From Malacoraja senta (lineage: Eukaryota), in contig CM075988.1 in NCBI GenBank assembly GCA_038087875.1, positions 25,608,001 to 25,672,000 on the forward strand: DNA of 64,000 nt, in the 5' to 3' direction. The notes under the pieces were generated by a model. It was not told the DNA's origin. It saw only the letters and a list, made by a program, of their open reading frames with translations, and made no database searches. The position numbers were made by a program, and so were the translations under genes. Below, one piece after another: positions 398-64,000 of this stretch (the first letter of the stretch is position 1; each line of letters begins with the position of its first letter).

Positions 398-490
398 AGT
401 CTGAAGAAGGGTCTCGACCCGAAATGTCACCCACTCCTTCTCTCCAGAGGTGCTGCCTGTCCCGCTGAGTTACTCCAGCATTTTGTGTCT
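398..490 (+). mobile_element. Penelope-like pLTR fragment (family B) with minimal hammerhead core
   Basis: agtCTGAAGAagggtctcgacccGAAAtGTCaccc...gctgagttactccagcattttgtgtcta; the same unit recurs throughout the window. Confidence 0.75.
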
Positions 491-714
491 ATTTCTGGAG
501 TCGAGGCCAGACTCCAGAGATCCACACACGGCGTTCAGACCTGTGCTTGAAATCCTGTATTGGTGAGCGGTGAAGTACTGAGGGACCAGTGTCCAGAGCA
601 TGCTACACTGGGTGACGCCAGCTGAGGGAGTATTGCACTGTGGAAGATCAAGGTCTAATGTACAGTCCAGGGAATGCGGCATGCATGTGGAGTTGGTATT
701 CAGAGAGTGTTAAA

Positions 715-946
715 GAAGGAACTGCAGATGCTGGAAAATCGAAGGTACACAAAAATGCTGGAGAAACTCAGCGGGTGCAGCAGCATCTATGGAGCGAAGG
801 AAATAGGTAACGTTTCGGGCCGAAACCCTTCTTCAGACTCAAACTCCAGAGTGTTGAAGAAGGGTTTCGGCCCGAAACGTTACCTATTTCCTTCGCTCCA
901 TAGATGCTGCTGCACCCGCTGAGTTTCTCCAGCATTTTTGTGTACC
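715..946. mobile_element. Palindromic Penelope-derived pLTR pair (family A) with 16-bp TSD
   Basis: Inverted arms about 744-838 and 854-946; TSD ttcagagagtgttaaa at 699-714 and 947-962. Confidence 0.85.
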
Positions 947-1015
947 TTCAGAGAGTGTTAAACTGTTGGAACAGCAATGCAGGGAGGAATCTGCATTCTT
1001 ACAGGAGCAGTGAGA

Positions 1016-1220
1016 AGTGTAGGAAGGAACTGCAGATGCTGGTCTACACTGAAGATAGACACAGAATGCTGGAGAAACTCAGCGCGGCAGGCAGCTTTGA
1101 GGAAGGGTCTTGACACCGAAAACGTCACCTCTCGTAACTCAGTGGGACAGGCAGCGGCATCTCTGGAGAGAAGGAATGGGTGACGTTTCGGGTCGAGACC
1201 CTTCTTCAGAACTGTGTCTA
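1016..1220. mobile_element. Rearranged Penelope-like pLTR fragments (family B)
   Basis: gtgtaggaaggaactgcagatgctgg... plus an intact minus-strand core gtgacgtttcgggtcgagacccttcttcag at about 1180-1209. Confidence 0.7.
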
Positions 1221-1522
1221 CTACTGTCAGCAGGACTGATGGAGTACAGCACAGAAGTTTGATGGGTGACATGCCGATTCCACGCAGACCTCTGCGGAAG
1301 GGGATGTGATGATGAGCTTTCATTGTGATTGCATCAACGTGCTGGGCCCACCAGGGATCATCAGTGAAGTGTACACAGAGGAACAACGCCGTTTAACTCT
1401 CTAGGACTGAGGCAACATGAGGAACTGAGGCCATGGTTACATCAGTCCTGGTCTTGAATAATGGAGCAGTCGAGGTGCAGAATGACTTGCCTCTGCCTCT
1501 GTTTTTAAATTTCTATCTTCAG

Positions 1523-1920
1523 CTTAGCTTAGAGTTACAGTGAGGAAACAGGCCCTTCGGCCCATCGAGTCGACACCGTCCAGCGATCCCCGCATATTAC
1601 CACTATCACACACACACACACACACACACACACACACACACACACACACACACACACACACACACACACACACACACACACACAAGGGACAATTTACAAT
1701 TTTACTGAAGCCAATTAAGCTACAACCCTGCACGTCTTTGGAGTGAGGGAGGAAACCGGAGATCTCGGAGAAAACCCATGCGGGCCACGATGAGAACGTA
1801 CAAACTCTTTGTTTGTACGTGCTCATCGAGTTTGTACGTTCTCATTCCTCCCGCAGTCAGGATCGAACCTGGGTCTCCGGCGCTGTAAGGCAGCAACTCT
1901 ACCGCTGCACCACCGTGCTG
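1523..1920 (-). mobile_element. HE1-type tRNA-derived V-SINE with internal (CA)n expansion
   Basis: Reverse complement starts cagcacggtggtgcagcggtagagttgctgcc...ggttcgatcc (A/B boxes) and ends gggccgaagggcctgtttcc; (CA)n at about 1607-1684. Confidence 0.85.
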
Positions 1921-2519
1921 TGTTTATATGTAAAGCTGATGAATCCATCATACGAGCTTTTTGCTTTGATATTTTCGACACTCAAAGACAATAAAATAAT
2001 TTTATTAACTCACTTAAAAATATGTAATTGCTGCTTCGAGCACCGTATCCACATAATGAGACAGGCAGCTTCTTACACACTGATTCTTCATGTTACACAA
2101 ATGTAAGCTGAGAAGATTTCAGTCAATTATTATGTCCTACAACTCTGTTGATATGAAACTGTTATTCTCAGTGGAAAAGAAGGTTTCATTTTGAAAGTTT
2201 GGGCCTGTGATATTTGCCTAATGAGGGAGACCTGCTTCCTCTGTTTCACCCCATAACCGTTCTAGTGTTGACTCAAGCTATGTTGAATAAAACGAAAAAA
2301 ATTATAAAACCAACAGGCAAATGAATTCAGCTTCTTTGGAACCAGGGTGAGAGGGAGAGAGAGAGAGAGAGAGAGAGAGAGAGAGAGGCTGTGTGTGACA
2401 TTCACTGGGTTGGTGGTAGTTAATGCCGAAGGTTTCACATTCTGGCATTTTAAACTGTGGACTTTTTTTTCCTCTTCAGATGAACAAGTGCAGTGTTATT
2501 GAGCCCTTTCCAGAGGAAT

Positions 2520-62146: not shown

Positions 62147-62385
62147 GTGTAGGAAGGAACTGCAGATGCTGGCTGCAACTGAAGATAGACACTGGAGTAA
62201 CTCAGTGGGTCAGGCAGCTTCTCTGGGAAAAGAAATAGGTGACATTTCAGGTCAGTCTGAAGAAAGGTCTTGGCCCCAAACGTCACCTATTCCTTTTCTC
62301 CAGAGATGCTGTCTGACCCGCTGAGTTACTCCTGTAGTTTGTGTCTGTCTTCGGTTTAAACCAGCATCTGCTGTTGCCTTCCTAC
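62147..62385. mobile_element. Palindromic pLTR pair (family B), tails on both arms
   Basis: gtaggaaggaactgcagatgctgg / ccagcatctgctgttgccttcctac. Confidence 0.78.
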
Positions 62386-62844
62386 TCAAAATTCATGTCG
62401 CCTGCTTGACCATTGTCCAAGTTCGAAATTCCAGCCAACTTATCTAAAACTATAGCTGGAGGAATTAATATTAGTTTCTTGAGGAATTAACCTTGTTACA
62501 TTCTTCAGAAACTCGAAGTGCTTTCTTCAGCTTTATGTGGTGGAATTTACTTGATCCTGGAAATTTAAAGTAGCAGAATCGAATATTTAATTTGTGGCTG
62601 TGTTTTCTTACTGAAGTACTGATGGAAAAGCTCATTGTAACACGTTTCTCTACTCTTCACGCTGTGCGACCTTTACCTTGCTTTTAGTCATTTATTCATG
62701 ACACACGGACGTCACAGAATCTTACAGTGATGGAAGAGGAAGTCATTTAGCTTCTGTTGTCTGAGCTGTGTTGTTGAAGAAGTTACTCAATTGTGGGTTC
62801 AAGGTCTCATCGAGACTTAATCTTGCAGTGTTAAGCGTGCTGAG

Positions 62845-63165
62845 ACCACCCTTCATTCTCCTGTGCTCCAAGGAATAAAGTTGTAGACTACCCAACCTCT
62901 CCCTATAGCTCAATCCATTGAGTCCTGGGAACTTCTTTATAAATCTTCTCCATGCTCTTTGTAGTTTAATGGTATTATTCCTCTGACAAGGTGACCAACG
63001 CTGAATACAATACTCCAAGTATGGCTTCATCAACATCTTGTACAACTGCTACATAATGTCCCAACTACCTTACTCAAACCCATGCCTGATGAAGGCCAGC
63101 GTGCCACAAGCTACTTGCCTGTAACACCACTTTCAAGTAGCGGCCTGTCTGTACTTCTAGATCCT
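62845..63165 (-). mobile_element. Old CR1 fragment
   Basis: YKMLMKPYLEYCIQRWSP...GLSYRERL. Confidence 0.75.
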
Positions 63166-63167
63166 TT

Positions 63168-63345
63168 GTGTAGGAAGTTACTGCAGATGCTGGTTTACAC
63201 CGAAGATAGACATAAAAAGCTGGGGTAACTCAGCGCGACAGGCAGCATCTCTGGGGAGAAGGAATGGGTGACTCTTCTTCAGACTGAATGGTCTCGACCC
63301 GAATTGTCACCCATTCACTGAGTTACTCCAGCATTTTGTGTCTCT
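63168..63345. mobile_element. Degenerate pLTR palindrome
   Basis: Family B arms. Confidence 0.7.
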
Positions 63346-63837
63346 GGTAGATCCCCCTGCTCCACCACACACCCAAGTTTGACTTCTCAAGTCAAGTCAA
63401 GTCAAGTCACTTTTATTTCTATAGCACATTTAAAAAACAACTCTCGTTGACCAAAGTTGGTGGACTTGGTCTGAATATGGTCGCTTTCAGATTACTGTTG
63501 TGGGACCTTGCTGTGTGGAAATTGGTCGCTGTTTTGCCTACTTCACCACAGAAAATGCATTGAAAGTATTTCAATGAGTGGAAGGTACTTGCGAGAGATG
63601 TGTAAGATGACATATAAATGCGGATCAAGGGACTGAGCGAGAGAGGAGGAGGAGGCGAGCAGGCAGGAGAGGAGAGTAACAGAGGAAGGTAACAAGGCAG
63701 GGAGTTGTCAGGGCTGCAGGAGGCACCAAATATCACACTGCAAGTGAGAGTAACTCAATGACAGGAAGGAAGAGATCACACACGAAGAAGCTGTCAGATG
63801 GGACAGAAACAGCGAATCAAAGAATGATCAAAACAAA

Positions 63838-64000
63838 TGCAGATGCTGGTTTAAACCGAAGACAGACACAGAAAGCTGGAGTAACTCAGCGGGACAGGCA
63901 GCATCTCTGGAGAGAAGGAATGGGTGACGTTTCGGGTCTGAAGAAAGATCTTGACCCGAATCGTCAGCCATTCCTTCTCTCCAGAGATGCTGCCTGTCCC
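63838..64000. mobile_element. pLTR palindrome (family B), runs off the window
   Basis: gggacaggcagcatctctggagagaagg / ccttctctccagagatgctgcctgtccc. Confidence 0.75.

Follow-up and report, generated by a model that had tools for sequence, protein, structure and literature searches.

A stretch of 64,000 nucleotides (nt) from the Malacoraja senta genome (contig CM075988.1, positions 25,608,001 to 25,672,000 of the forward strand; hereafter the window) is densely populated by a short repeat that carries a minimal hammerhead motif. When motif copies are aligned together with their flanks, the motif stands at the head of a repeat of ~100-135 nt with conserved blocks along its whole length, and a profile made with nhmmer from 16 window copies picks up 55 pieces of this repeat, amounting to 5,546 nt or 8.7% of the window. 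We consider it very probable that these pieces are the dead-on-arrival, 5'-truncated 3' ends (~100-140 nt) of an old and extremely abundant Penelope-like element (PLE), and that the minimal PLE hammerhead is carried along in them as an inert fossil.

The initial annotation of this DNA had reported about 30 hammerhead-bearing insertions of PLE pseudo-long terminal repeats (pLTRs), and its count is borne out, with 31 of the 55 pieces covering the whole 28-nt hammerhead segment, 20 being partial and 4 lacking that segment. The sites it quoted hold the motif exactly: 18243 and 56552 on the plus strand and 32332-32356 and 28976-29000 on the minus strand for family A, and 50126 (plus) and 1185-1209 (minus) for family B. 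The family A 25-mer, CTGAAGAAGGGTTTCGGCCCGAAAC, matches the window 18 times when up to 3 mismatches are allowed (5 exact matches; none in 100 shuffles), and the family B 25-mer does so 6 times when at most 1 is allowed (3 exact). The window motifs are real and far above chance. We call a motif intact by sequence when both boxes are present, the four helix II positions can pair and CGU is followed by H; 13 of the 31 spanning pieces are intact in this sense (5 on the plus strand, 8 on the minus strand), 13 have a mutated core and 5 a broken CGU-H stretch, and the conserved boxes are fully intact in 13 + 5 of the 31.

The attribution to a PLE, which the initial annotation had also made, is upheld by linked coding frames elsewhere in the genome and by one window copy. 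A genome search with the Pfam GIY-YIG model led to a locus where a B-type motif closely follows the end of a GIY-YIG frame, and a 203-amino-acid (aa) fragment from this locus passes the Pfam GIY-YIG cut-off (30.5 bits against 22.6). Among relatives of this fragment (150 scored of 107,296 first-look candidates, 69-80% identity), 16 of the 20 returned loci, one of which is the query's own, have the strict motif on the same strand ~105-125 nt beyond the point where the protein match stops. A frame for reverse transcriptase (RT) and GIY-YIG stops ~100-120 nt upstream of the motif in other genome loci as well. One of them (L057) has a single 595-aa frame with an RVT_1 match (E 3.2e-6) and a partial GIY-YIG match; another (L056) has a single 620-aa open frame with an RVT_1 match (E 1.6e-5), whose C-terminus shares 67% identity with the GIY-YIG fragment; 97 nt beyond the end of this frame lies an exact family A motif. 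Both frames thus have the arrangement that marks endonuclease-positive PLEs, one open reading frame (ORF) encoding RT and then a C-terminal GIY-YIG domain. In the window, the minus-strand copy at 53137-53508 retains the final ~50 codons of the PLE frame. Because the long copies and this window copy run into the RT/GIY-YIG frame, we take the repeat to be the 3' non-coding end of the PLE. The first long frames tried, L044 and L045, gave no Pfam match at E up to 0.01, and L044 is 5'-truncated behind a simple repeat.

The linker of these frames reads CNRKRCYTC and CNRKRCNTC in L056 and L057, and CNRRRCNTC in a further frame, P0002. A CX2-5CxxC linker motif is described for the Neptune and Nematis clades (PMC8557442). 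Judged from its sequence, the CX4CX2C linker points to a place for the window family with the Neptune-type PLEs.

The pieces on which the following discussion draws are listed here, long and short denoting two classes of 3' end described below.

18238-18372, plus strand: family A tail piece with long 3' end; intact minimal hammerhead motif at 18243-18270.
708-954, both strands: head-to-head inverted pair; minus arm 841-708 family A, intact, long 3' end; plus arm 855-954 short, core beginning TTGAAGA.
13406-13637, both strands: head-to-head inverted pair overlapping at ATCAGTCTGA; minus arm 13540-13406 long, with mutated core; plus arm 13531-13637 short, sequence-intact.
56434-56681, both strands: head-to-head inverted pair; plus arm 56547-56681 family A, intact, long; minus arm 56542-56434 intact, short.
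28872-29002, minus strand: family A hammerhead on an intermediate (AB) tail with long 3' end; motif intact.
32239-32425, minus strand: family A copy with intact motif at 32329-32356, reaching ~79 nt upstream into the pyrimidine-rich 3' untranslated region.
53137-53508, minus strand: longest window copy, with the last ~50 PLE codons (53367-53508), a pyrimidine-rich spacer, an intact motif at 53219-53246 and a short 3' end.
50122-50238, plus strand: family B tail piece with intact motif at 50126-50153.
1109-1213, minus strand: family B piece with intact motif at 1182-1209; tail interrupted.
8471-8594, plus strand: family B piece, sequence-intact, with CUCA as the helix II loop.
38436-38531, minus strand: class C tail piece, motif sequence-intact.
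23553-23680, minus strand: class C tail piece, motif sequence-intact.
26584-26805, both strands: head-to-head pair joined within the motif; one long arm, one short.
47678-47852, both strands: head-to-head pair whose pieces are truncated 3' of the motif core; one long, one short; microRNA (miRNA)-like in Rfam below threshold.
49521-49885, minus strand: cluster of four truncated minus-strand pieces head to tail, with one plus-strand piece; a partial tandem with no whole core.
62148-62379, both strands: head-to-head pair, the sole one with a long 3' end on both arms.
63167-63346 and 63834-64000, both strands: two more head-to-head pairs, the second cut by the window end.

Genome-wide, the family is present on a very large scale. 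In the 1.94-Gb assembly the exact family A 25-mer occurs 20,930 times and that of family B 28,408 times, and the looser pattern CTGANGA-N11-17-GAAACGT has 108,685 matches, compared with 371 for a reversed control. The window repeats are also multi-copy in four sequencing runs (contigs of uncertain kind, probably DNA), which show no starts or ends. A tandem array at L009 (G000:C1:3872000-3881900), seen also at L010, has a period of 4,421 (sub-periods 1,964 and 2,457) at 98-100% identity, and appears as a satellite-like amplification of a stretch that holds a tail copy. This array was considered as a source element and set aside; family A motifs are present in it, yet it has no frame longer than 166 aa.

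The motif itself has the layout of a minimal hammerhead: CUGAAGA, an extra A, a 4-base-pair (bp) helix II starting from G10.1-C11.1, GAAA, the palindrome ACGU, GUC or GUU as the cut triplet and a helix I of 2 bp. Over 108-142 copies, every column of the core boxes C3-U4-G5-A6-N7-G8-A9 and G12-A13-A14 is 94-100% conserved, and the unpaired A between A9 and G10.1 is present in 93% of copies. The cut triplet conforms to NUH, being GUC in 65%, GUU in 32% and GUA in 2%. There is no helix III of its own; the ACGU palindrome is predicted to pair only with a second copy, and 85.9% of its cells are complementary. Helix II, in keeping with the earlier claim that it stays pairable in both A and B forms, has four pairs with 90% of cells paired, the 10.1-11.1 pair being GC in 63 and GU in 14 of 85 copies.

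As regards the motif, families A and B are as described, with a U-G against a U-A pair in helix II, the ACGU/AACGUU palindrome, and GUU against GUC triplets. The division into two subfamilies proves too simple, the tails falling into at least four classes: by tail markers, the window holds 21 B, 10 A, 9 C and 6 A/B intermediate pieces, with 9 unclassified. B-type hammerheads are found on A-type tails, and an intermediate helix II form, GGGUUUCGACCC, is present in the genome sample. The A/B difference in helix II comes down to U-A against U-G plus one loop change, so that the apparent covariation between A and B is a single wobble-compatible change.

The further claim, that selection at the level of structure acted on the source elements, finds no backing in the alignment. 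Among 91 copies from the window and other loci, whose close relationship keeps them from being decisive, each of the four helix II pairs varies on one side and none on both, and the named structure pairs 72.9% of cells compared with a shuffled mean of 72.8%, a value reached by 215 of 500 shuffles; pairing and covariation are no better than in shuffles. No pair in helix II or helix III is altered on both sides, as a compensatory change would require. Columns diagnostic of the subfamilies are about equally frequent within the motif (3 of 28) and in the 66 nt of tail after it (10 of 66), and at this shallow divergence the core is roughly no more conserved than its flank, the outcome that the initial annotation had named as speaking against its own proposal. 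At the same time, all four A-specific changes fall on positions that a hammerhead tolerates, namely the loop, 11.4 (U-A to U-G), C17 to U17, and A1.1 to G1.1 opposite U2.1. Their placement is compatible with selection in the source elements without demonstrating it.

Whether any of these motifs could cut is a separate matter. The predicted minimum folds of the monomer are -8.0 (A) and -8.9 (B) kcal/mol, compared with -4.5 and -3.9 for the hammerhead fold, and those of the dimer are -28.8 (A) and -26.9 (B) kcal/mol, compared with -13.3 and -12.7. In family A, two derived bases make GUUUCGGCCCGAAAC self-complementary (window 18252-18275 and all A copies), and the predicted minimum contains a GUUUCG/CGAAAC hairpin that sequesters the GAAA box; this hairpin is absent from family B. 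Of 161 pieces, none begins within 3 columns of the cut site and none ends there. Minimal PLE hammerheads have very low activity even as dimers (PMC4209133), and the hammerhead of an Anolis PLE is protein-assisted and dispensable for insertion in vitro (PMC11167929). The scattered single-copy hammerheads are therefore best described as most likely inert, a carried-along fossil that would have no partner, no real helix I and an unfavourable fold. Their role in the source elements may have been weak, protein-assisted cutting, or something other than cutting.

The initial annotation had raised the prospect that intact copies are live self-cleaving sites, which would cut a host pre-mRNA on both strands and be under structural selection. 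The 13 sequence-intact motifs in 64 kb, on both strands, and a motif density about four times the genome mean (15 window matches to the CTGANGA-N11-17-GAAACGT pattern, where the mean predicts 3.6 per 64 kb) lend this some colour. Nonetheless, it seems to us very unlikely. No host exon was recognised in the window, the Pfam search of 30 of its 63 frames of at least 115 aa returning transposon domains only; there is no covariation; and the difference in intactness between strands (5 of 18 on the plus strand, 8 of 13 on the minus strand) falls short of significance (Fisher p 0.079), with subfamily age as a confounder. With a helix I of 2 bp, an active fold that differs from the predicted minimum, no helix III unless a partner is at hand, and very low published activity for this kind of motif (PMC4209133), window copies are unlikely to cut host pre-mRNA.

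A subtler alternative would keep the motif useful for a reason other than self-cleavage, as a promoter or as a module recognised by the PLE protein, its likeness to a hammerhead being historical. The whole tail is conserved between subfamilies as well as the motif is, the hammerhead fold lies 3.5-5 kcal/mol above the monomer minimum and ~14-15 above the dimer minimum, family A hides its GAAA box in a hairpin, and no piece is bounded by the cut site. In addition, Anolis PLE hammerhead mutants still insert in vitro (PMC11167929), and Naiad PLEs thrive without hammerheads (PMC8557442). Yet PLE hammerheads from across the animals share four hallmarks that are far from obvious, and their dimeric forms do cut in vitro, though slowly (both PMC4209133); moreover, every subfamily-level change here sits on a ribozyme-tolerated position. 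We regard this alternative as rather doubtful.

The way the pieces are inserted also speaks of a PLE. Their 3' ends are bimodal: of the 157 pieces that are not clipped by the end of their source sequence, 58 stop within model positions 100-114 and 52 within positions 130-143, ~30-35 nt apart. Half of the window pieces sit in head-to-head inverted pairs with joints at variable internal points; there are 17 such pairings, 15 of them distinct, in the window, and 32 candidates in the window and other loci together, with joints at model positions 3 to 77. Where both arms can be classified (16 pairs, window and loci), 12 pairs join a long and a short arm, 3 are short with short and 1 long with long, an asymmetry in excess of what the marginals predict (binomial p 0.037). 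Strong 5' truncation, adjacent inverted copies and an optional 30-40-bp tail are signatures of PLEs (PMC8557442, PMC11167929), and each has its counterpart here, in 55 short pieces, 15 distinct pairs and a one-end tail of ~30-35 nt. In vitro, the Anolis PLE has both strands cut and extended, and reverse transcription begins at two adjacent internal sites (PMC11167929). By analogy with this literature, target-primed reverse transcription from either of two sites ~30-35 nt apart near the RNA 3' end would give long and short 3' ends, and priming on both DNA strands would give inverted copies side by side, one arm of which has the extra tail.

Inverted pairs might instead be fold-back or miniature inverted-repeat (MITE)-type DNA transposons with terminal inverted repeats, an idea that the many near-perfect hairpins, their sub-threshold matches to Rfam miRNA models and a 566-nt palindrome in L008 bring to mind. 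We think it extremely improbable, since the arms are one retroelement tail joined at variable model positions from 3 to 77, mostly have unequal 3' ends, and continue in long copies into the RT/GIY-YIG ORF, and since inverted-pair structures are described for PLEs (PMC8557442).

Within the tail, an 8-nt block, AGATGCTG, is followed ~55 nt downstream by its exact complement, CAGCATCT (window 18290-18372 and other long copies), and the two blocks are invariant among copies. A TCCAGCAT-like word stands before each of the two alternative 3' ends. Their arrangement makes it possible that these blocks and words form a module for RT recognition or for the start of reverse transcription.

Several observations weigh against the reading of the pieces as truncated ends of a hammerhead-bearing PLE, in addition to the lack of covariation and of a pairing score above shuffles among the 91 closely related copies. 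Helix I has 2 pairs only (U2.1 with A or G1.1 in 73 of 85 copies, G2.2 with C1.2 in 68 of 85), the following two positions being paired in 17 and 8 of 85, short of the 4-5 bp seen in most families of minimal PLE hammerheads and similar to the 2 bp of a D. virilis variant (PMC4209133). The RVT_1 scores of L056 and L057, 25.1 and 27.4 bits, are both under the Pfam curated cut-off of 29.6. Neither a full-length copy nor a direct pLTR-ORF-pLTR tandem of the window family was found in the loci analysed, where all frames are of at most 620 aa; the closest approach to a tandem is the partial array of truncated pieces at 49521-49885. The pair counts include some pieces that enter more than one pairing. 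Rfam hammerhead models (types I, II, III, HH9 and HH10) have no match in the window, whether at the gathering threshold or with E relaxed to 10; unlike the minimal form, they contain a helix III hairpin.

Finally, 5' ends are not spread at random as simple truncation predicts. All but 5 of the ~31 motif-spanning window copies end 0-14 nt upstream of C3 (for example at 18235-18243, and on the minus strand at 44533-44541 and 53246-53254), and among 20 genome copies chosen for the motif alone (L060-L079) the 5' stop lies at up to 12 nt in 11, at 16-37 nt in 3 and beyond 95 nt in 6. The boundary ATCAGT|CTGAAGA is present in 85-93% of copies.

This clustering is one of the arguments for a different reading, in which most short copies are a discrete non-autonomous unit of ~100-135 nt, similar to a short interspersed nuclear element (SINE), such as a solo pLTR or a retrozyme-like monomer. 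Its RNA would start 0-6 nt upstream of the hammerhead at the initiator-like TCAGTC, and the PLE enzyme would copy it in trans. TCAGTC resembles an initiator, for which TCAGTY is the consensus. Support comes from the clustered 5' ends and the conserved boundary, from the internal TATA-less promoter of the D. virilis Penelope pLTR, which combines an initiator (Inr) and a downstream promoter element (DPE) (PMC2377424), from the statement that pLTRs hold promoters (PMC6765202), and from the derivation of vertebrate non-LTR retrozymes from PLE pLTRs (10.64898/2026.07.22.740005). On the other side, 6 of the 20 random copies reach more than 95 nt upstream into ORF-side sequence, so the tail also ends long copies; and a near-palindrome at the 5' boundary, TCAGTCTGA, could favour the same point through cDNA junctions. 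Two cDNAs annealing at TCAGTCTGA could, on sequence grounds, be the cause of joints there. AACGTT was considered as a DPE and rejected, ACGU lying 3 nt nearer than the fly spacing rule would place it. All in all, a SINE-like unit is the leading alternative to truncated PLE 3' ends, better viewed as a refinement of that reading, and one that we judge less likely than not. In long copies the motif is also preceded by a pyrimidine tract of ~100 nt that closes with CAG. This raised the idea of an intron lying between ORF stop and motif, which is kept as a lead only, no conserved donor being seen.

The nearest published relatives of the window motif are the minimal hammerheads of metazoan PLE pLTRs that Cervera and De la Pena defined in 2014, listing features that their search did not impose (PMC4209133). 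The window motif shares with them the CUGANGA and GAAA boxes, the unpaired nucleotide between A9 and G10.1, the G10.1-C11.1 pair, the palindrome at 15.2-16.2, the lack of helix III and hence the need for a dimer, the short helix I, and the terminal non-coding position in a PLE, as well as the distribution as mostly dispersed single motifs with some close pairs on opposite strands and several consensus families per genome. It differs in a helix II of 4 bp, compared with 6-8 bp in schistosome and fly examples, in a helix I of 2 bp, as in the D. virilis variant and unlike the usual 4-5, and in number, with 108,685 core-box matches compared with ~4,000 in coelacanth and ~9,000 in Xenopus; family and host genome are also others. 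The window family is another case of this published class, a kind already known, to which it adds one very large family of ~10^5 motif copies in a 1.9-Gb genome.

Comparison with the Poseidon element PAc of Anolis carolinensis (PMC11167929) bears on the 3' ends. In PAc, the hammerhead lies upstream of two adjacent RT start sites whose spacing explains a 30-40-bp tail, and here the 3'-end classes are ~30-35 nt apart and the inverted pairs have the tail mostly on one arm. The two differ in that the PAc ORF starts inside the hammerhead, whereas our motif lies ~100-120 nt after the ORF stop with no ORF start seen after it, and in that the CX4CX2C linker suggests the Neptune clade and not Poseidon. 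The non-LTR retrozymes of animals (PMC7761336; 10.64898/2026.07.22.740005) resemble the window family in their type I hammerheads, their origin from PLE pLTRs and their short, non-coding and numerous monomer copies; theirs are tandem units bounded by hammerhead cut sites, with circular RNA, whereas the window copies are dispersed or inverted and have the cut site internal, none of 161 ending at it. As for Penelope of D. virilis, the likenesses are the 2-bp helix I (PMC4209133), the Inr/DPE-type internal promoter of its pLTR (PMC2377424), and an intron whose 3' end abuts helix I, as the pyrimidine tract and CAG do here. These likenesses are a lead only.

The genome holds a second, young PLE family that presents the hammerhead in a very different condition (L080:1-7201, that is G000:C5550:5900-13100; also L058, L059, L012, L015 and L081-L085). 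Its unit is 6,869 nt long, with a 759-aa frame that has RVT_1 and GIY-YIG, and both a manual parse and the minimum-energy fold show a complete type I hammerhead in it: helix I GGGAAGAG/CUCUUUCC, CUGACGA with an extra A, helix II GCUA/UAGC, GAAA, helix III ACUGG/CCAGU and a GUC triplet. Its fold energy is not better than that of shuffles (z -0.18), and Rfam does not recognise it. Anchoring on the 16 bases up to GUC gives 92 copies. In 52 of these the helix I strand follows; the remaining 40, which make up 9 junction types, part from it exactly after GUC. In all 9 junction types the sequence starting at the first base after GUC maps inside the unit, at 276, 1537, 2233, 3354, 3431, 3531, 3551, 3990 and 6556. 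At every junction, then, one unit ends exactly at the predicted cut and a next unit, 5'-truncated, follows. On the simplest reading of these sequences, hammerhead-cut RNA 3' ends would have served as templates in this family; alternatively, a fixed reverse-transcription start site might merely coincide with the predicted cut. The in vivo role of PLE hammerheads has been called unknown (PMC7761336, PMC8557442), and one study of the Anolis element reports no reads ending at the cut site (PMC11167929). For the wider question of whether and why PLE hammerheads act in vivo, these junctions provide a genomic handle that can be tested.

It is tempting to see the two families as two working states of one device. 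The complete hammerhead of the young family would cut in vivo and set both RNA ends, while the minimal form of the window family would no longer set ends and would instead head a ~100-135-nt unit beginning at TCAGTC, which spread in SINE-like fashion to ~10^5 copies with the motif retained as a promoter or recognition module. We offer this synthesis tentatively and, on balance, think it improbable.

Two features of the second family stand apart from its hammerhead. A 16-nt minisatellite of about 125 copies or more lies downstream of its ORF and before the hammerhead (L058:7711-10000 and about 2344-4900), and a 528-aa open frame upstream (L080:509-2092) has a weak GDSL-lipase-like match (E 0.004, below cut-off).

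For annotation, it is of practical use to know that ~9% of the window consists of these tails and their inverted pairs, which look like miRNA hairpins to Rfam. The inverted tail pairs at 789-900, 13443-13629, 47695-47800 and 55258-55385 match Rfam miRNA precursors at E down to 1e-18, below every gathering score, and these sub-threshold matches are the sole Rfam matches in the window. Such pairs are a likely source of false miRNA calls in genomes of this kind. Remains of other transposons lie at 5234-5743, 35819-36490 and 59616-60104, all on the plus strand: an RVT_1 fragment of the long interspersed nuclear element (LINE) type (E 9e-17), an ALKBH8_N-like frame and a Tc1/Sleeping-Beauty-like helix-turn-helix (HTH) frame. 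Two assembly gaps of 200 N each interrupt the window at 9504-9703 and 47970-48169.

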